DNA of 64,000 nt, taken from the IMG/VR virus record IMGVR_UViG_3300025012_000045, positions 1 through 64,000 of that record. The stretch is one strand, 5' to 3'. This DNA comes from a virus. A program made the position numbers and the translations under genes. Positions 1,550 through 59,608 of this stretch are shown piece after piece (the first letter of the stretch is position 1; each line of letters opens with the position of its first letter). The notes beneath the pieces are model-generated. The model saw only the letters and a program-made list of their open reading frames with translations, had not been told where the DNA came from and did not search any database.

Positions 1550-2107
1550 ATGAAAATAGTAATCACAGAAAGTCAATTAAAACGAGTTATTGAAAATATT
1601 ATAAATGAAGTTTATGATGATATTAATGAACCAGCAAAATTGAAAAATGTTAATATAGAAAAAAGTGATGAAAAACAATTAATTATTAAATTTTCAACAA
1701 TATCTGGAAATAATTATGCTATTGAAGCATATGTTGATAATTTTGATAGTAAAGTGGGGGAAACAACAATAAAAACAATACAACAATATAATGAAAATAA
1801 ACCAGTATATTTTATAAGATTTGGAACTTATGAAAATAATAAAATAGATGTAAAACCATTAACACAGAATAAAGAATCATTAACTATTTTAAGAACAGTT
1901 TTTCATTATTTAAATGAATACATTAATAAATATGATGTAAGAGTTATATATTTTACGGCAGATTCGGATAGTAGAATAGTTGCATATAAAAGATTTATAG
2001 ATAAATTTGGTAAAGATTTTCTATTATTTAGTGAAAAAGATAGATTAGTTGGCAATATTGGTTTTGTTATTAAAAAGGAAGATTATGAAAAAGCAATACA
2101 AAAATAA
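1550..2107 (+). CDS. putative head-packaged protein, module gene A copy 1 (possibly GNAT-like)
   Basis: Probable start ATG 1550 (MKIVITESQLKRVIE); paralog of 30057-30629 and 32508-33071. Confidence 0.75.
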   Translation: MKIVITESQLKRVIENIINEVYDDINEPAKLKNVNIEKSDEKQLIIKFSTISGNNYAIEAYVDNFDSKVGETTIKTIQQYNENKPVYFIRFGTYENNKIDVKPLTQNKESLTILRTVFHYLNEYINKYDVRVIYFTADSDSRIVAYKRFIDKFGKDFLLFSEKDRLVGNIGFVIKKEDYEKAIQK

Positions 2108-2363
2108 ATTATTAAAACTTAAAAATAATCATAAATTAACTTATAATGAATGTTATATAGTTTTAAAAGATATTTTATTTAAAGAATTAAATATAAAGAA
2201 TATAATAAAAGGTGATTTTCTTAATATTTATGAATTATATTATCAAATTGAAAAAATATTAAATATTCATATATGGGACGATGTGGCAGAAGAAATAAAA
2301 ACAGTTAATGATTTAAGTTTAATCGTTTTTAATGAATTATTAAATAAGAAGATAATAAAATAA
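2085..2363 (+). CDS. acyl carrier protein-like protein lacking the Ppant serine, module gene B copy 1
   Basis: GDFLNIYEL..IEKILNIHIWDDVAEEIKTVNDL aligns with ACP DSLDxVEL..[20 protein letters not shown]; probable start ATG 2085. Confidence 0.65.
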   Translation: MKKQYKNKLLKLKNNHKLTYNECYIVLKDILFKELNIKNIIKGDFLNIYELYYQIEKILNIHIWDDVAEEIKTVNDLSLIVFNELLNKKIIK

Positions 2364-2364
2364 T

Positions 2365-2925
2365 ATGAATATATTAATAACAGAATCCCAGTTTAAAAGA
2401 TTAATTGAAAATATTATTGATGAAAATATTAATCCAAAATATTTAACAGTTGATTATTTTAAAGAGAGAATTCCTTTTTTAAAAGAATACAAAATTATAC
2501 ATAGTCCAGATATTAATCCTCATCAAACCATAAAAGATAGAATTGAAATGAGACTGGAATCATATAATAAAAATATTGATTCATATGTTGGTGATACCAT
2601 TTATACTTTTCCCCAGTTTAATATAATATCAGAATTTATGTATTATTCTTATAAAATTCGTGATAACATTTTTTATATATTTTTGATAAAAAATAGATTT
2701 TATATTATTAAACCAAAAAATATGGATGATTTATTATATCGAGTATTTTTAGAGGGAGGTAAAATGAAAGAAAAAGAATTTTCAAAAACACATGAAATTA
2801 TTTTAAAGGGGGGAGAAAAAATACCAGAACAAAAATTAAATGAAATAGTTAATGATATTAATAGTAGATTATTCAAAATAGAAGAGTTTAGCAATAAATT
2901 AGGCATACCTTTATTTAATTTTTAG
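2365..2925 (+). CDS. hypothetical protein with ITESQ leader
   Basis: MNILITESQFKRLIENIIDE N-terminus. Confidence 0.75.
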   Translation: MNILITESQFKRLIENIIDENINPKYLTVDYFKERIPFLKEYKIIHSPDINPHQTIKDRIEMRLESYNKNIDSYVGDTIYTFPQFNIISEFMYYSYKIRDNIFYIFLIKNRFYIIKPKNMDDLLYRVFLEGGKMKEKEFSKTHEIILKGGEKIPEQKLNEIVNDINSRLFKIEEFSNKLGIPLFNF

Positions 2926-6034: not shown

Positions 6035-6829
6035 TTATTTTTGTCCGATTAAATCCTTATCAGGATCTAGATAATTGTCCTCAAGTATTGATTTGTCAAT
6101 TTTAATAACAAATTGGTCTTTAATATTTTGAAATGGTATCCCACCAGTTTTAACTATATTTATTCTAAATTCTTTTATGTCCTCATTTTTGTCCTCTATT
6201 TCATAATATACTTTACTGTTTATGATTTTCATTCTTTCAAGTTCTAATTTTAAGGTCTTGTACCCTTGAATCCCTTGTGTGTTTCTTATTATCTCTTCTG
6301 TCCGTTTCAAATGTTTTTTTGACATTATTTTCTGTCTTTTACAACCACCGTCAAGATGAAAACTTATTTTTAATTGTTCATAAATATTATTGTAAAGATT
6401 AATAGATTCGTCTTCATCTACAAGATAACATATTATTGGTAATTTATAATAATTAAGATGATCAAGAGTCATAAAATTGAATTCAAGATAGTATGTTTGT
6501 AATTGATTTTCTAAAACTTTCTTTAATGTCTTAATAAACATAAGTCGTAATTTATTTGATGTTTTTTTAAAATATTCTACTGTTCTTTTAAAATGTGTGA
6601 TAACTTGTTTATATAAAAATAATTTGGTTTTTAATATAATTTTACATACCTTTGTAAAGTAAAAGGGGGAAATATTCCGGGGAAATGGTGAGGATTTATC
6701 CAATCCACTGACCATACGGTGATCCCCCTTTTTATTATATCTACTGTCTTTTTTAAAATGTGTGATAACTAACAATAAATGAAGTTTTTTGGTCAAAAAC
6801 ATTCCAATTTTATTTAATATATTTTTCAT
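6035..6829 (-). CDS. island A leader-fused ORF (constant N-terminus MKNILNKIGMFL..VITHFKK)
   Basis: First 27 aa nearly identical to 45390; internal VITHFK and MTLDHL shared with 45882. Confidence 0.55.
   Translation of the reverse strand: MKNILNKIGMFLTKKLHLLLVITHFKKDSRYNKKGDHRMVSGLDKSSPFPRNISPFYFTKVCKIILKTKLFLYKQVITHFKRTVEYFKKTSNKLRLMFIKTLKKVLENQLQTYYLEFNFMTLDHLNYYKLPIICYLVDEDESINLYNNIYEQLKISFHLDGGCKRQKIMSKKHLKRTEEIIRNTQGIQGYKTLKLELERMKIINSKVYYEIEDKNEDIKEFRINIVKTGGIPFQNIKDQFVIKIDKSILEDNYLDPDKDLIGQK
6660..6734 (+). ncRNA. putative ~75-nt structured small RNA
   Basis: TTTG(6623)-N20-TACCTTTG(6647) promoter, then nested stems AAAAGGGGGA/TCCCCCTTTT, CCG/CGG, ATGGT/ACCAT, GGATT/AATCC. Confidence 0.55.
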
Positions 6830-6876
6830 AATTTATTTAATCTTAAAAGTTATAAAATAGCAATAAAAATTTCATT

Positions 6877-7110
6877 TTATTGTTTTTTATTTTTTGGTTT
6901 GATAATTGTATAGAGACATTTTTTACATGATAATCCTTTTTCATCATAAAATGTTGTTTCTCTAAATTCGTGTTCACATTTGATTTGTTCAATTATACCC
7001 TTGAATGCCCAATAAATTTTTTCTTTGGAAAAATTATCAAGTTCTTTCCACCATTTATTAACTTTTTTTCTATGTTTTAAAACATCTTGTTTTGTCAATA
7101 ATCTCACCAT
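6877..7110 (-). CDS. hypothetical small Zn-binding protein
   Basis: CEHEF...CKKC; its 3' end lies within the island A terminus. Confidence 0.6.
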   Translation of the reverse strand: MVRLLTKQDVLKHRKKVNKWWKELDNFSKEKIYWAFKGIIEQIKCEHEFRETTFYDEKGLSCKKCLYTIIKPKNKKQ

Positions 7111-7149
7111 AATTATTAAATATAAGTATATAAATTATAAAAGTAAATA

Positions 7150-7407
7150 TTATTTTTTATTAAAATAATTATTAATTCTTTCTTTGGTTTTTAATCTCAT
7201 TGCTCTTAATTCTCCAACAGTAATATTATGTCTTCTGGATAACCAGTTATCATAATATTCGTTATCATCTGTAAAATAAATATCATCAAGTGGAACCCAA
7301 ATTTTTAATATATCTTTTGTAATAAACCCAGAAATTCTTCCATCAGATTCAAGAATTTCATCATTATATGTTAAATCTTTTATCTGCTGTTTAGTAAATT
7401 TAATCAA
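7150..7407 (-). CDS. hypothetical protein
   Basis: ORF in the minus-strand operon. Confidence 0.6.
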   Translation of the reverse strand: MIKFTKQQIKDLTYNDEILESDGRISGFITKDILKIWVPLDDIYFTDDNEYYDNWLSRRHNITVGELRAMRLKTKERINNYFNKK

Positions 7408-7618
7408 TATCTTCTTTATTTTTCCTAAATTTTTTTACTTTTTTATTAGAAACATCATCAACATCATTTTCATATATGTGTACGATTTTTTTACAATCTG
7501 GGCACTCTACAAATTCAGTTCCCAAATTGTCTATTTTAACATTGCATTCTTTAAATTTTTCACATTTATCACAATGCCATTCTTCTTTGTCTATAATTCT
7601 CGTTTCAATCATACTCAT
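7400..7618 (-). CDS. zinc-ribbon protein
   Basis: CDKC...CPDC. Confidence 0.65.
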   Translation of the reverse strand: MSMIETRIIDKEEWHCDKCEKFKECNVKIDNLGTEFVECPDCKKIVHIYENDVDDVSNKKVKKFRKNKEDID

Positions 7619-24513: not shown

Positions 24514-27500
24514 TTAAGCATTATTATAATCTATACCATCACCAATTCCATCATCACCAGTACCACTATCTATTATTTGTTGATTAAATTTATCCTTTGA
24601 AGTAGGTTTACTATCAAATGGAAAACTATATAATAATGCTAATTCTTTTTGTTTTGTTGGTACTTTTATTCCTAATTTTTTTATTTTATCTTTGTTATTA
24701 TTGCTAAAAAATTGTTCCATTTTATTGTCTTTAATTTCAAAATGATGTATTTCATCTATTCTTACTGATAATGATTCTGTTATTTTTTCTTGTCTTCCAT
24801 TTTTAAAATGTCCACCCCATTTAATTAAATCTTTATATTTTGAATCAGTAAGAACAAACTGATTTATTTTTATCATAAGATTTTTATTTTTTACTAGTTC
24901 TTTATTAGCTAATGGCCATCCCAAATCTTTGTAATTTACATCATCAGTACTAATTAATAAATCAATTGCTAATCCTGCCCCATGTTTAGAGGTTTTACTT
25001 CTACTAGGGCCACCAGCAACAACTGATTCTAAATCCCTTGTAATACCATTATTACCAAGAGTTGCAGAATTTCCTAAAAATTTTTGTAAATCTTTCATAA
25101 ATTCCAATAACTTATCTCCTGCAACACCTTTATTCATATCTATAACATAATATTTACCAACAGAACCAGATTGTACATATAATCCATTCGAATTATTAAT
25201 TTTATTAATATCAATAACACCCTTAACTGGACTTTCCCCTGTACTACTCCCTTCTCCAAAAACTGAGTCATCGCATAAATCAAATCCAATTGCTGTTGCA
25301 TAATCTGTTACAATTGGTAATCTGTTTGTTGCAATTCTAACACCCTTGAATTTTGTTATCATATGATTTGGAACAATACTATGATTTACTTGAATTATCA
25401 TATATGCGCCATGAAACATTGGTATATTTTCAAGATTAAAATATTGTGTCGGTTGAATCATTACATTTCCCAACATTTCAACTTCACATGAATAGCTTCT
25501 TTGTTCATATGTGTTAAATAAATTTTGACCTTGAAGTTGAGTTTTAGCATCAACATCGCTTGAACCTAATTGTGAAATATTATCTAATATTTTAATAGAT
25601 TCTATGGTTTCTTTAAATTCTGCCTGGTCAAGAGCAATATCTTTAAACATACTTTGATTTGGATCACCATATTTAACACTAAACGCATTAACTTGAAGAC
25701 CAGAGTTAGGGTCCTTTTGATCTTCTCTGAAATCATCTGGTAATGTCGTATCTTTAAAATTAAAACCACTATCTTTATACAAATCATCAGATTCATTTAA
25801 TTTTAAATCTAAAAAAGATGATGTACTATCAATATAGACACATAAAAACATCGGTGCTTGTTTAATATCTCCTATTATATTTGTATTAATTCCAAATATA
25901 CTTTGTATGTCCCAATTACCGGAATCAAACAACATAAAATTTTGTAATGGAAAAAATTGAAAACCATTGTTTACTAATAATAACTCTATAAGTGTTAATA
26001 AACTCATACTAGCGTTATCATTAATGTTTTCAATTTTATTAAAATTAATAATCATACTTTCATTATTATTTTCAGTTCCAGTATTAAATTTTCCAGATTC
26101 TGGCTTCACTCCAACATCTCTCATTACTCTATCAACAAATCTAAATCTGGATATCAATTTATCATCTGATAAATTTGATTTTTTTGTTCTTCTGCCAAAA
26201 GGAGCGAAATCACCAGACAACCACCTATCATATATTGATTTGAATGATAAATAAAGTGATAGTTTAGCTTTATTGTCATTTAATCTTGATAATATATCTT
26301 TTTTTGTTTTTTCAAGTTCCTCTATTTTTGTTTTAGAATTATCTTTAACGTATTGTAATGCAGATTTTATAATTAATTTAAGTAATTTTTTATCAGTATC
26401 AAATTTATTTTTGTTTAATAATAATTGGCCATTATCATCAAAAAAATATTTATTCTCTATTTCTTTCCTAGTAGTAAATGCTAGTGGAGTTCCAATAAAA
26501 ACATATCTTTGTTCATAAATATTGTCCCATATATCTGTTCCTTCTTTAATTTTCCCCCACTCTTCAAAATCATCTAATGTTAAATCTTCATTTTTTTTAT
26601 CATCTGGTTCCGTTATAAAAAATTCTGGATCTAATTCCCAAATAGAATTATTTGGATCTAATATAATTTTATTTCTAACCAGATCCTCAAAATTATTTTT
26701 AAAATCTATAAATTGGTCTCTAAACACTTTTTTTGTTATTTCTGGTAAATCCTTTAATTCATTTTCTTTTATGTTTAAATGTTTAAAAAATATATTTCTA
26801 TCAATATTAAAATCATTTAATAACGTAGAAACTGGATCATTATCTATAATTGAAATAATCCAACCCCAACCAGCACAAACAATAAACGGAATTTCCATTA
26901 TACCTGGTAAAGTTTTATATTTATCTGTAATTTTAAATGAGTTTGTATTTTTATTCAAGAATAATGTATTGGTTCTGGAGCCAGCAAAAAACTTATCCGT
27001 AATTTCTGCTCTTATTTTTTCATCAACTGTTACAGACCCGGTAGCTCTTGTGCCTAGTACAGTACCACCATAACTATAAAATAAAAATGTTTCAGCATTT
27101 TGTAAAATTTTATGTAAAAAAATAGAATAAAAATTTATTCTACCTTGTTTTAATAATTCTTTTGTATCGCTAATATTTAATTTTTTATTGACTTTATCTT
27201 CTACTGATAATATTGATGGAAGTCCAAAAGATTTAATTGATTTTTCTTTAGTAAAAAAATCACTTTCTCCTTCTTCATCTTTTCTTCTCATATCTGGGAA
27301 ATAAAATTCATTTCTCTCTGTTACTTGAATATTTCCTTTGCTAAAAAAATCAAAAATACCCTCAAGCCAATCTGAAATGTTTAATATTTTAATAAATTCA
27401 TTGGTTGGTTCTTCTGGAGTTCTATTAAGTCCATTTTTAATTTCAATTACAGATTTTGTTAATCCAGAAATTGAAAATAAATAATTACCCCCATGTCTAA

Positions 27501-29415
27501 AATTTATTTCTTGTATATTAATATCATTTAATATATCAAAAGCGGTATCATCAAAACCTAAAGTAATATCTTGATCTACTTCATCTTCTTTAAGTATTTT
27601 ATCAATATCATCTAAATTTAAACCTTTAAAATATCCTAATATTTTTTCATCTCTAATTCTATCAATAATATTTCTTCCTTCTAATTTACCATAAGATTCT
27701 ATTTGATTTTCAGTCATAAACATTTGATCTATAAATCCTTGAAATATAATAGTTCTTTTTACTAATGCCCCCAATATATCAGATATTTGTGTTACATCAT
27801 AATCTGTTGATATCGTTAAATCTTCAAATGGTCCCAGAGGAAACCATATTTGTTTTCCCGCCTCATCTTTAGATTCATCAATAAATGTTTGAGTCAAATC
27901 CAGTTGTGCAATATCAATTGAAGATTCAATAAATGTTTCAACAAAATCTATTTCTGGCATCTCATCTCTTGAAAATAACTCACCCGGATAAACTTTAGTA
28001 GTTTTATTTCCAGTACTTTTTATTACTTCTGGCCATGCAAATCTTATATTACTTTTATCTGATATTTTAGTATCTTTTGCATTTCTTTCAAGCTTTGGAT
28101 TTTTTAATAATTTACCCTCGTCATTTTGTGCTCTTTCTGAATATTGTATTAATAAATCAATAAAAATATCAGTATTATCACAAATTATTTTAAAAATATT
28201 ATATATTGAAGGTAAAAATCCAAGAGTTTTTCCTAATTTTCCTTTTATTTCATTTTGAACATTTCTACATTTTTTATTTCTTAAATTCCTATATTTAGTT
28301 AATTCTCCCATAATAGAATTAATTCTTTTTTTAACATTTATAAATGCAATCCAATATGAAGATTTTCTTTCTGACAATTCGAGAAGAGTCCCAGACTTAG
28401 CATTAATAGTTATATTTTTAGATATATCTTCTCCAATTATAAAACTCAATTCTTTTTTAAGTTTAGAACCAAATTCTGGAATATTTTTAGTTTCACCAGT
28501 CGATAAAAAATCTGTTGTTAATTTATATATACCAGAGGAATCATCAAACCCTACATCAGTTATTGTTATTTTAGTTTTTTCAATATTAAAACTTTGTTCT
28601 TCAAATAAATTTTTTAAATTTTTTAATGTATTTAATTCTCTATTCAATTTATCTATTTTATCTTTATGTTCAATAAGACTTTTATAATCGGGGCTTTCTT
28701 GTTTTATTTTTTGTACTTCTTTATTTAATGATTTTGAAGCAATAATTAACTCGTAAATAGTATCTATATTATTACTATCCTGGGGATTAGGAACATCTTT
28801 TATTGTTTTAGATCTCCTTGCCATAAAGGGGGCAGCCTTAATATACGCAACAGGAATATCAGCAAGTGGTGCAAATGTAACAGCAATAAATTCAGCAGTT
28901 ATTTCAAAATTACCTGATTTACTATTGAATTTTGTATTTTGTTTTAATAAATGTAATAAATAAGTTAAACTTTTCCCAAAATAACCTTTAATGGTTAATT
29001 CAAATTCTGGTGGTGGGAATTGAAATAATACTGCATATTTTGAATTTGCTCCAACATTAAATAAACTTGACCCTCTTATATCAACAAAACTAATTGTTAC
29101 TTTTGGTATATAACTTGTATTAACATCAATATTTATACTTGTAATTCCAAAACCCTCTGGTTCATTACCTGATGTATGTGGGCCACTTATTTCTGACCAG
29201 TTCGTTGTAAATGCTTTTGTTTTTTCATCAAAACCTAAAAAATTAACTTCAACCCCTTCAACCCCTTTTCTACTTTCTATTGTAAGACCACCACCTTCTT
29301 TATCTTCAATAATACTTCTTCCTCTTGTTTTAACTCTAAGATTTACATAAATATTGGTTTCTTCCATCTTAGGAATACCACCATCAAATGCTTTTAATGG
29401 ATCAATTAATGCCAT
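24514..29415 (-). CDS. baseplate hub-like protein with C-terminal M15-family peptidoglycan peptidase
   Basis: Hub-like EVEMLGNVMIQP..GAYMIIQVNHSI; SKHGAGLAIDL, KWGGHF, EIHHFE zinc peptidase motifs. Confidence 0.7.
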   Translation of the reverse strand: MALIDPLKAFDGGIPKMEETNIYVNLRVKTRGRSIIEDKEGGGLTIESRKGVEGVEVNFLGFDEKTKAFTTNWSEISGPHTSGNEPEGFGITSINIDVNTSYIPKVTISFVDIRGSSLFNVGANSKYAVLFQFPPPEFELTIKGYFGKSLTYLLHLLKQNTKFNSKSGNFEITAEFIAVTFAPLADIPVAYIKAAPFMARRSKTIKDVPNPQDSNNIDTIYELIIASKSLNKEVQKIKQESPDYKSLIEHKDKIDKLNRELNTLKNLKNLFEEQSFNIEKTKITITDVGFDDSSGIYKLTTDFLSTGETKNIPEFGSKLKKELSFIIGEDISKNITINAKSGTLLELSERKSSYWIAFINVKKRINSIMGELTKYRNLRNKKCRNVQNEIKGKLGKTLGFLPSIYNIFKIICDNTDIFIDLLIQYSERAQNDEGKLLKNPKLERNAKDTKISDKSNIRFAWPEVIKSTGNKTTKVYPGELFSRDEMPEIDFVETFIESSIDIAQLDLTQTFIDESKDEAGKQIWFPLGPFEDLTISTDYDVTQISDILGALVKRTIIFQGFIDQMFMTENQIESYGKLEGRNIIDRIRDEKILGYFKGLNLDDIDKILKEDEVDQDITLGFDDTAFDILNDINIQEINFRHGGNYLFSISGLTKSVIEIKNGLNRTPEEPTNEFIKILNISDWLEGIFDFFSKGNIQVTERNEFYFPDMRRKDEEGESDFFTKEKSIKSFGLPSILSVEDKVNKKLNISDTKELLKQGRINFYSIFLHKILQNAETFLFYSYGGTVLGTRATGSVTVDEKIRAEITDKFFAGSRTNTLFLNKNTNSFKITDKYKTLPGIMEIPFIVCAGWGWIISIIDNDPVSTLLNDFNIDRNIFFKHLNIKENELKDLPEITKKVFRDQFIDFKNNFEDLVRNKIILDPNNSIWELDPEFFITEPDDKKNEDLTLDDFEEWGKIKEGTDIWDNIYEQRYVFIGTPLAFTTRKEIENKYFFDDNGQLLLNKNKFDTDKKLLKLIIKSALQYVKDNSKTKIEELEKTKKDILSRLNDNKAKLSLYLSFKSIYDRWLSGDFAPFGRRTKKSNLSDDKLISRFRFVDRVMRDVGVKPESGKFNTGTENNNESMIINFNKIENINDNASMSLLTLIELLLVNNGFQFFPLQNFMLFDSGNWDIQSIFGINTNIIGDIKQAPMFLCVYIDSTSSFLDLKLNESDDLYKDSGFNFKDTTLPDDFREDQKDPNSGLQVNAFSVKYGDPNQSMFKDIALDQAEFKETIESIKILDNISQLGSSDVDAKTQLQGQNLFNTYEQRSYSCEVEMLGNVMIQPTQYFNLENIPMFHGAYMIIQVNHSIVPNHMITKFKGVRIATNRLPIVTDYATAIGFDLCDDSVFGEGSSTGESPVKGVIDINKINNSNGLYVQSGSVGKYYVIDMNKGVAGDKLLEFMKDLQKFLGNSATLGNNGITRDLESVVAGGPSRSKTSKHGAGLAIDLLISTDDVNYKDLGWPLANKELVKNKNLMIKINQFVLTDSKYKDLIKWGGHFKNGRQEKITESLSVRIDEIHHFEIKDNKMEQFFSNNNKDKIKKLGIKVPTKQKELALLYSFPFDSKPTSKDKFNQQIIDSGTGDDGIGDGIDYNNA

Positions 29416-29782: not shown

Positions 29783-30076
29783 TTAATTATTTTTATATTT
29801 ATCATATAACAATTCATGAGTAACAATTAATGTTAAATCACCAATTGTTTTTAATAGTTCTAAATCTTCATCCCAAATATTAATATCCAAATCGCTCTCA
29901 ACTTCACATAAATAAGCCAAAATTTCTCCGAATTCATCACCTTCTAATTTATCTGATTTTTTAAATTTTTTATTTTTACTTATAAAATATTTTTTTAAAT
30001 ATTCATAACACTCATCATAAGTTAAATTATCTATTTTTTTTAATTCCGATAAAATTTTATTTAATTGATCTATCAT
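29783..30076 (-). CDS. ACP-like protein lacking the Ppant serine, module gene B copy 2
   Basis: EVESDLDINIWDEDLELLKTIGDL. Confidence 0.65.
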   Translation of the reverse strand: MIDQLNKILSELKKIDNLTYDECYEYLKKYFISKNKKFKKSDKLEGDEFGEILAYLCEVESDLDINIWDEDLELLKTIGDLTLIVTHELLYDKYKNN

Positions 30077-30629
30077 AATCTTCTTTTTTAATCATAAAAC
30101 TTATATTACCCACTAACCTATCTTTTTCATTAAAAAGATAAAAATCATAAAAATGTTTATTAATTATATATTTATATACTTCAATTTTTTTTTCTCCTTC
30201 TGATATAAAATAAATAATTCTTACATCATATTTATCAATATATTTTTTTAAATAATGAAAAACAACTCTAAATATTAAAAATTGTTCATGTTCATTTGTT
30301 ATTATTCTGGCATCAATTTTACCATCTTTATAAATTCCAAATCTTACTTTATATACTGGTTTATTCCCATTATATTGTTGTATTGTTTTTATTGTTGTTT
30401 CTCCAAGTTTACTATCAAAATTATCAATAATTGCCTCTAAAACATAATTATTCATATTTGTAGAAAATGTTATAACTATTTCTTTTCCATTATCCTTTAA
30501 TATTTTTACATTTTTTATATCATTTTCTGAAACATTAAGATCAGAAAATATTTCTGATAATATTATATTTTCATCAATAATATTCTCTATTAATCTTTTA
30601 AATTGATTTTCTGTTAATTTTATTTTCAT
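30057..30629 (-). CDS. module gene A copy 2
   Basis: MKIKLTENQFKRLIE; DNFDSKxGETTIKTIQQYN, EKDRLVGNI. Confidence 0.75.
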   Translation of the reverse strand: MKIKLTENQFKRLIENIIDENIILSEIFSDLNVSENDIKNVKILKDNGKEIVITFSTNMNNYVLEAIIDNFDSKLGETTIKTIQQYNGNKPVYKVRFGIYKDGKIDARIITNEHEQFLIFRVVFHYLKKYIDKYDVRIIYFISEGEKKIEVYKYIINKHFYDFYLFNEKDRLVGNISFMIKKEDYDRSIK

Positions 30630-30630
30630 T

Positions 30631-31527
30631 TTATATAAATAGATTGTATAATCTAAATAATTTTCTTTTTAATTTTTCTCCTTGTTTATTAATAAATAGT
30701 TGATATTTTTTCATTAATGAATTAACTTGGTCTGGTGTTAACAACATAACATTTCTATCTGATTTTAGGTATTTATTTATGTTTTCTTTTTGTTTTGAAA
30801 TTAGTTTATTAAATAATGTAAAATAAACTATTTTTTCATATTCATCTATCCCTTTTAATCTATTATTAAAATCTTTAAAAATATTATAATTAATCATTTT
30901 CCATGACAATCCATATCCATTTGTATTTTTAATATTTATAGTAAACCAATTTCTCATAGTTTCATCATTTTTTAACATTTTTCTTTTAAATCCTTTTTCT
31001 CCAAGCTTATGTTTTAGTATACTATAAGTTCCTGCCACTGTTGCATTAATTTCTGATTCTTTTGATCTATCCATTAAATCTTTAAAATAATCAATTATAT
31101 TTTCATTTCTTTTAACAACTTTTTTTGATATATCTGATGCAATTAAATAATCTATCATTTTTTCTGACCTTTCTTTTCCAAGAACAAAAAATTGTAAGGC
31201 ATGATTCATTTCATGATAAACATCTTCTTTAATATCTCCATTTATAATTGTAAAATATAAAACAGCCCCTTGATTTGTTGTTTGAGATTTTTTAATATCA
31301 AAATAACTTACATTTTCTTTATTTGTATAATTAACTATAATTTTATCTATTTTAACCTTATTTAATTTGGGTAATTGGTTTTCAGTAAAAGTATATATAT
31401 CATAATGTTTATCTTTTATATAATTTATAATATAATCAGATAAATTATTAACATCATTATGAATCCCCAATTCTTCTTTTATTAATTGTTTTAATTCTTG
31501 TTCGGTTATTTTGATAGTTTCATTCAT
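30631..31527 (-). CDS. putative zincin (HExxH) protein with packaging leader
   Basis: YHEMNHALQ, ESEINA; paralog of 58670-59608. Confidence 0.65.
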   Translation of the reverse strand: MNETIKITEQELKQLIKEELGIHNDVNNLSDYIINYIKDKHYDIYTFTENQLPKLNKVKIDKIIVNYTNKENVSYFDIKKSQTTNQGAVLYFTIINGDIKEDVYHEMNHALQFFVLGKERSEKMIDYLIASDISKKVVKRNENIIDYFKDLMDRSKESEINATVAGTYSILKHKLGEKGFKRKMLKNDETMRNWFTINIKNTNGYGLSWKMINYNIFKDFNNRLKGIDEYEKIVYFTLFNKLISKQKENINKYLKSDRNVMLLTPDQVNSLMKKYQLFINKQGEKLKRKLFRLYNLFI

Positions 31528-32245: not shown

Positions 32246-32533
32246 TTACCTTTTTTTATTTCTTATCAATTCATGAGTAACAATTAATGTCAAATCATTA
32301 ATTGTTTTTAATCCTTTTAAATCTTCATCCCAAATATTAATATTTAAATCTTTCTCCAACATACAAAATAACCATAAAATACCATATCCGTCTCCATCTT
32401 TTAATTTATTTGATTTTTTAAAATTCATAATTTCTGACATTATTTCTTTTAAAATATCATAACATTTATTATATGTTAAATTATCTATTTTTTTTAATTT
32501 TAATATTTTATTTTTTATTTGTTGATCTGTCAT
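32246..32533 (-). CDS. ACP-like protein lacking the Ppant serine, module gene B copy 3
   Basis: MLEKDLNINIWDEDLKGLKTINDL. Confidence 0.65.
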   Translation of the reverse strand: MTDQQIKNKILKLKKIDNLTYNKCYDILKEIMSEIMNFKKSNKLKDGDGYGILWLFCMLEKDLNINIWDEDLKGLKTINDLTLIVTHELIRNKKR

Positions 32534-33071
32534 AATCTTCTTTTTTAATCATAAAACTTATATTACCTATTAATCTATCTTTTTCATTAAAAAAATAAAA
32601 ATTTTTAAAGTGTTCATTAATTATGTATTGGTACAATCTAATTTTTTGCTCTCCTTCAGATATAAAATAAATAATTCTTATATCATATTTATCAATATAT
32701 TTTTTTAAATAATTAAAAACAACTTTTAATATTAAATATATTTCATTATAATTTGTTATAGTTCTGGCATCAATTTTACCATTCTTATAAATTCCAAATC
32801 TTACTTTATAAACTGGTTTATTTTCATTATATTGTTGTATTGTTTTTATTGTTGTTTTTCCAACTTTACTATCAAAATTATCTATAACTCCTTCTAAAAC
32901 ATAATTATCTATATTCGTAGAAAAAGTTATAACTATTTCATTTTCATTATCTTTTAATATTTTTACATTTTGTATTTCGTTTTTAGAGATGTTAAGGTCA
33001 GAAAATATTTCTGATATTATTATATTTTCAATTAATCTTTTAAATTGGGATTCTGTTATTAATATTTTCAT
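32508..33071 (-). CDS. module gene A copy 3
   Basis: MKILITESQFKRLIE; highly similar to 30057-30629. Confidence 0.75.
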   Translation of the reverse strand: MKILITESQFKRLIENIIISEIFSDLNISKNEIQNVKILKDNENEIVITFSTNIDNYVLEGVIDNFDSKVGKTTIKTIQQYNENKPVYKVRFGIYKNGKIDARTITNYNEIYLILKVVFNYLKKYIDKYDIRIIYFISEGEQKIRLYQYIINEHFKNFYFFNEKDRLIGNISFMIKKEDYDRSTNKK

Positions 33072-55290: not shown

Positions 55291-55581
55291 ATGAAAATAA
55301 GATTAACCGAAAGTCAATTAAGACAATTAATAGAGAATATTATTAAAGAGGAGGATAAAGAATTTTCAACTAAATTACTAAGTATTGATCCAATAACTGG
55401 TGAAAGGTCTTGGGATGTAAAATATAAAACAAATTTAAATACTATATATAAAGATATTGATGATATTGTAAATAAAATAGAAAAATTGGTTGTTAAAAAT
55501 AGAAATGATTTGGAAGCAAAAGAATTATTGAAAATATCCAAATTATTGAGAAATAAATTTTCAAGGTATATATTAAAATAA
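55291..55581 (+). CDS. hypothetical protein with ITESQ leader
   Basis: MKIRLTESQLRQLIENIIKEE. Confidence 0.7.
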   Translation: MKIRLTESQLRQLIENIIKEEDKEFSTKLLSIDPITGERSWDVKYKTNLNTIYKDIDDIVNKIEKLVVKNRNDLEAKELLKISKLLRNKFSRYILK

Positions 55582-58278: not shown

Positions 58279-58680
58279 ATGAATATAGAAAATTTAAATC
58301 AAAAAATTGAAGAAGGAATTAAAAAACTGGTCAAAGAGAGGGCTAAATCAAAAAGTCAAAGGAAGTTATTTGCTTTGGCAAAATCAGTAAAATCTGGTGA
58401 AACACTAAGAAGTGAAGTATCAAAAGATGTATTGGATATTGCAGATAAAGTATCTGGAAAAGAAATTGATAAATTTGCAAGTACAAAAGAAAAAGGATTA
58501 CCAGAGAAAGTAAAAAAAGATAAAGTAGAAGAAACAAGTAATGACAATCTTGCACAGGCATATGGTGGAGACAGTAATTCTTGGCCATCTGGAACTGGGG
58601 AATGGAATAATTTAGAAGAAGAAAGTGAAATTCCAACATTAAATCTTGATGATGTTGATTTAACAGAAGATGACAAATAA
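58279..58680 (+). CDS. DUF3008-like protein
   Basis: AKSKSQRKLF..FASTKEKGLPEKV. Confidence 0.7.
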   Translation: MNIENLNQKIEEGIKKLVKERAKSKSQRKLFALAKSVKSGETLRSEVSKDVLDIADKVSGKEIDKFASTKEKGLPEKVKKDKVEETSNDNLAQAYGGDSNSWPSGTGEWNNLEEESEIPTLNLDDVDLTEDDK

Positions 58681-59608
58681 AATTATAAAAATTAAAGAAT
58701 CAGAACTAGTTCAATTATTAGTAGAAAGTTTAGGAGTTAATATTGATGTTGACATATTGTCAAAATTTTTAATAGATTATTTAAAAGATAAAAAATATGA
58801 CCAACATATAATTAATAAGAATCAATTACTTGAACTAAATAAAGTTAATATAAATAAAATTATTATTGATTATAGTGATAAAAATCAGGTAGATTATTTT
58901 GATATTAAAAAATCAAGGAAAACAAATGATGGTGAAGTTCTTTATTTTCATTTTGACGATTTAAATCCTAATTCCATATATCATGAAATAAATCATGCAT
59001 TGCAATTTTTTATTATGGGTAAAGAAAGAAATAAAGAACAATTAACATCAATAAAGGCATCAAGAATATCCAGAATTTTTATTGATAAAAATAATGAAGT
59101 AATTAAAAGATTTTCTGATTTAATATATAAATCTACCGAGCAAGAAATTAATTCAGAGGTATCTGGTTTATATGGTGAACTAATAACACATCTTAGAAAT
59201 AAAGGATGGAAAAAAGGTCAATTTAAAAATGATGAACATTTTAAATTAATATTTGAACAATATGTTAATAATAGTGAAGCATATAATATTGCATTAAATA
59301 TGATTAATTATAATATTTTTGAAGAGTTTGATATTAAAAATTTAATAGGTATTGATGATTATGATAAAAGAGTTTATTTCACTATCATGCAAGATGTGAT
59401 TAAATCAAAACCTTTTTATAGTGGAATATTAGATTTGTTTAGATTATTTAAAGAATTATTGACATATAAATATAATCAAATGTTTAATGTGAATATTTTA
59501 ACAGAAGAACAAGTTAATTCCTTAATGAAAAAATATCAATTATTTATTAATAAACAGGGAGAAAAATTAAAAAGAAAATTATTTAGACTATATTATTTAT
59601 TTTTATAA
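58670..59608 (+). CDS. putative zincin (HExxH) protein, paralog of 30631-31527
   Basis: YHEINHALQ; identical C-terminal QVNSLMKKYQLFINKQGEKLKRKLFRLY. Confidence 0.65.
   Translation: MTNKIIKIKESELVQLLVESLGVNIDVDILSKFLIDYLKDKKYDQHIINKNQLLELNKVNINKIIIDYSDKNQVDYFDIKKSRKTNDGEVLYFHFDDLNPNSIYHEINHALQFFIMGKERNKEQLTSIKASRISRIFIDKNNEVIKRFSDLIYKSTEQEINSEVSGLYGELITHLRNKGWKKGQFKNDEHFKLIFEQYVNNSEAYNIALNMINYNIFEEFDIKNLIGIDDYDKRVYFTIMQDVIKSKPFYSGILDLFRLFKELLTYKYNQMFNVNILTEEQVNSLMKKYQLFINKQGEKLKRKLFRLYYLFL

Follow-up and report, generated by a model that had tools for sequence, protein, structure and literature searches.

The window, by which we mean the whole stretch of 64,000 nucleotides analysed here, is part of an IMG/VR virus record of 100,074 bp that has a G+C content of 24.8% and a completeness of ~30% as estimated by CheckV. 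Its source is an uncultured, very AT-rich groundwater phage. The window carries a unit of two genes, A and B, in three copies, which are located at 1550-2363 on the plus strand (pair 1) and at 29783-30629 and 32246-33071 on the minus strand (pairs 2 and 3, respectively), as had been noticed in a preliminary description of this DNA and is confirmed by the open reading frames.

Three overlapping A/B gene pairs

The first gene of each pair encodes a protein of the DUF6934 family (PF22028) with an N-terminal leader. A1 (1550..2107, plus strand) has 185 aa and the leader MKIVITESQLKRVIENII, which matches the leader profile, and its PF22028 match is above the cut-off (E 1e-9). A2 (30057..30629, minus strand), with 190 aa and the leader MKIKLTENQFKRLIENII, lies at the cut-off (E 5e-6), and A3 (32508..33071, minus strand), with 187 aa and the leader MKILITESQFKRLIENII, is the copy that was used for folding (E 1.7e-9). 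The second gene encodes a smaller protein with the fold of an acyl carrier protein (ACP) and a replaced cofactor serine: B1 (2085..2363, plus strand; 92 aa) has Phe at the Ser position (GDFL), B2 (29783..30076, minus strand; 97 aa) has Glu (GDEF), and B3 (32246..32533, minus strand; 95 aa) has Gly-Tyr in the loop (GDGY).

The two genes of each pair overlap in the same manner. At the A1/B1 junction (2078..2107, plus strand), the purine-rich sequence AAGGAAGA is followed by the ATG of B1 within the last codons of A1, giving an overlap of 23 nt, and the A2/B2 (30057..30085) and A3/B3 (32508..32542) junctions on the minus strand both contain AAGAAGATTATGA, with overlaps of 20 and 26 nt, respectively. 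These lengths agree with the range of 20-26 nt given before, as does the placement of the start codon; the conserved GAAGATTATGA end of A contains the ATG of B in all three pairs. The context of this ATG is AAGAAGATTATGA in copies 2 and 3 and in a relative (L004), and AAGGAAGATTATGA in copy 1. A and B of each copy are probably translationally coupled through the overlapping message.

The relative is a 1.8-kb contig from a 0.1-um metagenome of Hainich groundwater, which carries a fourth A/B pair that is ~70% identical, with an identical junction and an overlap of 20 nt. Hence the pair is conserved as a unit. Identities among the copies of the window are 55-80% for A and 39-64% for B, far beyond chance, and rough Nei-Gojobori estimates of dN/dS range from 0.33 to 0.62 for A and from 0.36 to 0.92 for B. 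Values below 1 for both indicate that A and B are real, constrained genes. The rate of change of B is about double that of A, with dN values of 0.235 and 0.102, respectively, between copies 2 and 3.

Searches for close relatives returned little else. No relatives of A were found by blastn or tblastn in a phage GenBank collection, nor in IMG/VR or GTDB genomes, and word-index searches gave only five relatives each for A and B. In the literature that was searched, DUF6934 appears only in an unrelated context and nothing was found on serine-less phage ACPs. As far as these literature and database searches reach, the coupled and triplicated A/B unit is new, although both kinds of component are already known.

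Gene B and the acyl carrier protein fold

B is a remote homologue of the ACP fold over its whole length, with four helices, since profile, PHROG and model comparisons all lead to carrier proteins. A profile built from five family members was compared with all PDB sequences and gave only ACPs among the 60 matches listed, of which B. subtilis ACP was the best (E 2.6e-4). PHROG 5934, 'acyl carrier protein', matches B with an E value of ~1e-3 (1.2e-3 for B1), and when 1.8 billion representatives were searched exhaustively with a profile, only four close relatives of B were listed ahead of ordinary ACPs. Furthermore, the structures nearest to an ESM Atlas model of B3 (pTM 0.67) are PP-binding clusters, with TM scores of 0.62-0.64 over residues 18-95. 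The likeness to ACP put forward in the preliminary description, whose proposal depended on an ACP fold of B, is therefore upheld by this model, but its limitation to the C-terminal helices is not, since residues 18-95 of the four-helix fold align.

Compared to type II AcpP, as represented by the B. subtilis structures 1HY8, 2X2B, and 1F80, B has the same fold and a recognisable sequence pattern from helix II to helix IV, whereas it lacks the DSL serine and any match to the Pfam PP-binding domain. No match to PF00550 was obtained in the record at E ≤ 10, or with hmmscan at E ≤ 1. In the alignment of the B profile, G-D-f is placed on A-D-S of ACP, so that the consensus Phe falls on the Ser. The replaced region described earlier (GDFL, GDEF, and GDGY) does lie at the DSL position of ACP. 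DSL is found in none of the seven members of the B family, in which the Ser position is occupied by F, E, G, V, or a similar residue, and one relative has N-S-N. In addition, no phosphopantetheinyl transferase or acyl-related gene was found in the record. Judged from its sequence, B cannot serve as a carrier, and with its cofactor site lost it would act only as a protein-binding module.

A phage ACP homologue with a replaced cofactor serine (GDELD) is also encoded by Dickeya phage RC-2014 (DA66_0071, 'putative acyl carrier protein'). That protein is acidic and near AcpP, whereas B is far more diverged and variable at the Ser position (F, E, or G). Phage ACP homologues that lack the cofactor site are not known to us to have a partner or a role.

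The surface chemistry of B is also distinct. AcpP is strongly acidic and has an acidic helix II for recognition, whereas two of the three B proteins are basic, with pI values of 9.10 for B1, 4.60 for B2, and 9.06 for B3, and the equivalent of helix II is hydrophobic (ILWLFCML, IYELYYQI) rather than acidic. In electrostatic terms, B does not resemble host AcpP, and the earlier suggestion that it is a decoy of this protein is at odds with the hydrophobic helix II and with the pI of ~9.1 of B1 and B3.

Gene A and the DUF6934 family

The PF22028 scores of A1, A3, and A2 are 39.0, 38.3, and 27.0 bits, respectively, relative to a gathering cut-off of 27 bits, and a six-frame search gave 39.6, 38.6, and 26.5 bits. 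For a deeper comparison, 401 Bacteroidota genomes were sampled, 17 of which have the family, and more than 100 further members came from a profile search; A aligns coherently with 112 of the DUF6934 members and shares with the family the blocks F-x-S, VY-x-x-FG, and R-x-x-LY. A belongs to the DUF6934 family, of which it is a divergent phage representative. A scan of IMG/VR with the bacterial DUF6934 alignment found one prophage-like locus only.

The divergence of A concerns both its length and its conserved positions. A carries ~60 additional N-terminal residues, comprising the leader helix and two strands, which the Bacteroidota members do not have. Eleven near-invariant residues of the family, F66, S68, N89, G93, D102, T117, G138, S139, R143, Y147, and G162 in A3 numbering, were inspected. 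The phage copies retain F66, S68, VY, FG93, R/K143, and Y147, whereas N89, D102, G138-S139, and G162, with a conservation of 96-100% among bacterial members, are substituted in all of them, and T117 is replaced in three of the four copies.

A model of A from only four sequences reached a pLDDT of 58 and had no useful Foldseek match. An AlphaFold2 model of A3 from 116 sequences has a pLDDT of 69, with 77-87 in the C-terminal half. When this model was compared with the PDB by Foldseek, the list consisted mostly of GNATs, including SpeG, the GNAT-like domain of ICL2, antizyme, Naa10/50, and the GNAT toxin 7byy, with E values of 0.012-0.1 and none below 0.01, probabilities up to 0.82, and TM scores of ~0.3. 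VIA-align gave full-length GNAT matches with Z scores of 4.6-5.6, while the top Z score of 7.8 belongs to generic beta-alpha-beta similarity of the confident C-terminal half. In BFVD, many phage proteins were matched with a probability of ~1 and TM scores of 0.40-0.46, among them NAT_SF proteins (E 3.5e-3 for one of them), and large multi-enzyme proteins of phages, for example fusions with a deaminase or a zeta-toxin kinase, contain the fold as one of their domains. Collectively, these comparisons suggest with moderate confidence that A has a GNAT-like shape, and the earlier remark that A weakly recalls GNAT folds is borne out to the extent of a weak fold signal from Foldseek, VIA-align, and BFVD.

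In GNAT enzymes, the pyrophosphate-binding loop for acyl-CoA, Q/R-x-x-G-x-G/A, precedes helix alpha3. This motif is absent from A as far as can be read from the sequence. The loop ahead of its predicted long helix 108-129 would be TNYNE, TNEHE, or TQNKE, with no Gly, whereas the bacterial DUF6934 members have NNGD. Signs of an active acyltransferase, whether catalytic or acyl-related, were not found in A.

These features bear on the mechanism first proposed for the pair, in which A would be an injected GNAT acyltransferase effector dependent on acyl-ACP, and B would mimic AcpP and block the ACP site of A late in infection, making the two an effector/immunity pair. The GNAT-like fold signal of A, its leader, the coupling of the genes, and the ACP fold of B without the serine are all compatible with it, and GNAT-like enzymes that use acyl-ACP do exist, such as LuxI and HlyC. 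Against it stand the loss from A of the near-invariant N89, D102, G138-S139, and G162, the Gly-free loop, the basic B1 and B3 with a helix II unlike the acidic recognition helix of AcpP, and the record itself, which has neither an acyl-related gene nor a phosphopantetheinyl transferase. We rate this mechanism as quite improbable because both the conservation pattern of A and the surface chemistry of B fit it poorly, and the claim of ACP dependence, which is met by several lost DUF6934 residues and no catalytic or acyl-related sign, is not retained here.

Leader, neighbourhood, and a possible role for the pair

A small downstream partner is typical of the DUF6934 family. In Bacteroidota, ~19 of 22 DUF6934 genes (loci L128-L150) are followed within 80 nt by an ORF of 48-70 aa that ends in LF..K...A...L..VGLPK. 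One Bacteroidota genome (G388) contains eight copies of this two-gene cassette, and the cassettes are scattered beside unrelated housekeeping genes. The phage pairs and these cassettes have in common the PF22028 score, the shared sequence blocks, and the small gene downstream; they differ in the partner itself, a protein of ~52 aa with the VGLPK ending in Bacteroidota as opposed to an ACP-fold protein of 92-97 aa in the phage. The Bacteroidota partner was considered as a relative of B and rejected, with an hhalign probability of 0.2%, and no ACP-like ORF occurs in those loci (best E 0.3). Since the partners are unrelated, the analogy to A/B is limited to architecture. An ACP-like gene was likewise not seen next to DUF6934-like genes in phages RC-2014, CBA120, or Atu_ph07. 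In Atu_ph07, no ACP-like gene was matched though DUF6934-like genes are present, and in RC-2014 the serine-less ACP gene follows a gene for a vWA-domain protein and not a DUF6934 gene. Co-occurrence of A and B in other phages, on which the preliminary description had made its proposal depend, is found only in the close relative L004, so that, to date, the A/B combination is confined to one lineage.

The architecture of the bacterial cassettes, with up to eight copies per genome, raises the question of whether A and B form an unpackaged cytoplasmic cassette of the toxin-antitoxin or counter-defence type, in which A would act in the infected cell, B would tune it, and the leader would be a helix common to paralogous modules. 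Overlapping genes and a fast-evolving B would fit such a cassette. The GNAT toxin/antitoxin pairs TacT-TacA, AtaT-AtaR, and KacT-KacA likewise consist of a GNAT-shaped protein and a small cognate partner whose genes overlap; however, the antitoxin of these pairs is an upstream DNA-binding RHH protein, whereas B is encoded downstream of A and has the fold of an ACP, and no acetyl-CoA motif is recognised in A. Moreover, the pairs of the window lie in long same-strand runs with very large envelope-related proteins, namely an OmpA-domain protein of 1015 aa, a LysM-like protein of 102 aa, and a protein of 1633 aa, outside any early or moron-like island, and the leader is shared with unrelated proteins and matches the type seen in T4 Alt and Atu_ph07. 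We regard the unpackaged cassette as unlikely.

The leader, M-x-I-x-[IL]-T-E-[SNQ]-Q-[FL]-K-R-L-I-E-N-I-I, is found at the N-termini of ORFs starting at 1550, 2365, 30629, 31527, 33071, and 55291 of the window, and weakly at 58670. The six ORFs matched by its profile are the three A copies together with 2365-2925, 30631-31527, and 55291-55581, and the weak match is to 58670-59608. The ITESQ leader had been described as present on A and absent from B, and the profile indeed matches all three A proteins and no B protein. It is a portable tag, and the protein bodies that carry it are of at least four unrelated kinds; for example, the gene directly after B1 (2365..2925, plus strand) encodes a 186-aa protein with the same leader and an otherwise unrelated body. 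A second leader class, E-x-x-R-[MI]-x-x-L, is seen in the gene that follows the fourth pair (L004:1474-1761, plus strand), the product of which starts with ...EYDEMNRMRKLSGL.

In A, the start MKILITE is followed by LIE and IISE, an N-terminal tag that ends in (L/I)-x-E, the cleavage motif of the protease-trimmed internal proteins that T4-type phages target to the capsid. T4 Alt begins with MELITELFD, and the likeness to the leader of A spans only 4-6 residues in a very AT-rich phage whose proteome is rich in Ile and Glu. In T4, the gp21 protease cuts an N-terminal propeptide of ~7 residues off Alt, according to a review of T4 head assembly (PMC9026906). The body of Alt is unrelated to A, and the N-terminal region of Alt was rejected as a DUF6934 relative (hhalign probability 0.2%), with no PF22028 match in T4. 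A 294-aa protein of the Agrobacterium jumbo phage Atu_ph07 has two domains that resemble DUF6934, with E values of 7e-5 to 8e-3 by HMM and 0.004 by hhalign and a BFVD probability of 0.98, and each of them is preceded by LSELFD or LTELFD. At this locus (AUZ95242, L162:7505-8389, minus strand, and the neighbour at 6667-7503), DUF6934-like domains lie in tandem within a single protein, with LTELFD at the interdomain joint; the internal LTELFD would fit a polyprotein cut by a protease. The recurrence of an Alt-like (I/L)(T/S)E leader before DUF6934-type domains in distant phages favours, without proving, head loading and trimming of A. Whereas T4 has gp21, no protease gene is seen in the present record, in which searches with PF03420 and PF07068 for a prohead protease and a major capsid gene gave no match in the 100 kb (~30% complete by CheckV), so that the argument for injection of A is the resemblance of its leader. 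Late-promoter-like sites of the form TATAAATA occur at a frequency near chance, with 43 found and 30 expected in AT-rich DNA.

Pairs 3 and 2 belong to one long minus-strand run of genes, in which a 1015-aa OmpA-domain protein is followed by A3-B3, a 234-aa protein, a 298-aa HExxH protein, A2-B2, a protein of 102 aa with a weak match of the LysM/baseplate type, and a protein of 1633 aa. A plus-strand run starts with pair 1 and continues with the leader-tagged protein at 2365..2925 and a 478-aa protein. Since most of the neighbours have no family match, 'tail/baseplate module' is a weak label for this neighbourhood. The HExxH protein (30631-31527, minus strand; 298 aa), located between pairs 3 and 2, and a protein at 58670-59608 on the plus strand (312 aa) are leader-tagged paralogues that are 48% identical and share YHE[MI]NHALQF, an HExxH zinc-peptidase-like motif; their sole family match is a weak one to a PHROG 'peptidase' (E 0.02). 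The C-terminal ~200 aa of the 1633-aa protein (24514-29415, minus strand) contain SKHGAGLAIDL ... EIHHFE, which appears to recall the S-x-H-x-x-G-x-A-x-D / H-x-H signature of LAS (M15-type) cell-wall peptidases, and this region had no Pfam match and no match in a PDB sequence search.

Alternatively, A itself could be a structural or accessory protein of the tail or baseplate, with B as its assembly chaperone and the three copies as versions for different hosts. Phage fibre genes commonly have a small chaperone gene downstream, and weak baseplate signals in the neighbourhood, namely phrog_7145 (E 0.004) and the OmpA domain, point in this direction. However, these assignments are themselves weak, and A is a small globular protein from a family whose bacterial members have no tail context. 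A structural role of this kind thus seems doubtful to us.

A direct association of A and B was addressed by complex prediction for A3 and B3 from custom alignments, with a partner pLDDT of at least 65 and a run-to-run contact agreement of at least 0%. The ipSAE is 0.54 (0.54, 0.00, and 0.57 in the individual runs), and the best control gave 0.00. Of 80 solved complexes, 58 pass the ipSAE mark, as do two of 110 mismatched pairs, and values up to 0.60 comprise only seven of the 80 solved complexes along with both mismatched pairs that passed; the prediction for A3 and B3 is accordingly classed as 'weak support' and not counted as evidence.

The reading that we tentatively prefer, while holding it at somewhat less than even, is that A and B are a cognate coupled pair, in which the ACP-fold B binds, as a chaperone or an inhibitor, a leader-tagged DUF6934 protein that is probably delivered with the virion. 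Each copy would produce A and B from one overlapping, probably translationally coupled message. B would most likely bind the A of the same pair during its late synthesis, serving this protein alone as chaperone or inhibitor. A, which has a leader of the short N-terminal (I/L)TE kind that T4 removes from packaged Alt, would then be loaded into the virion, and B, which has no leader, would probably stay behind. The triplication and the faster divergence of B would fit three co-diverging cognate pairs. A bolder form of this cognate-pair reading, to which we give only a slim chance, would make the A proteins virion-delivered GNAT-shaped effectors that an inhibitor on an ACP scaffold, translated together with them, keeps silent in the cell in which they are made, with three co-diverging pairs in one phage. 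If true, this would be the first effector/immunity-type pair with a cofactor-less ACP fold as the inhibitor.

Independently of such roles, four independent copies show a serine-less ACP tied by an overlapping start to the same specific neighbour, which provides a concrete candidate partner for this kind of protein and links two uncharacterised families, DUF6934 and the serine-less ACPs of phages. A is also a further example of a DUF6934-type domain with an Alt-like leader at its N-terminus, and such leaders could be a mark of cargo proteins in distant phages of the T4-like and jumbo kinds.

The only close relatives (contigs L004 and L005) come from the 0.1-um filter fractions Hain-H41-01um and Hain-H51-01um of Hainich groundwater, and this origin, together with the G+C content of 24.8%, hints at an ultra-small, AT-rich host. 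In two database proteins from ENA metagenome contigs (P0005 and P0007), a near-identical half of A3 or B3 is joined to unrelated sequence, namely an Asn/Thr-rich tail or a TrmB-like HTH; these proteins are probably assembly chimeras and not natural fusions.
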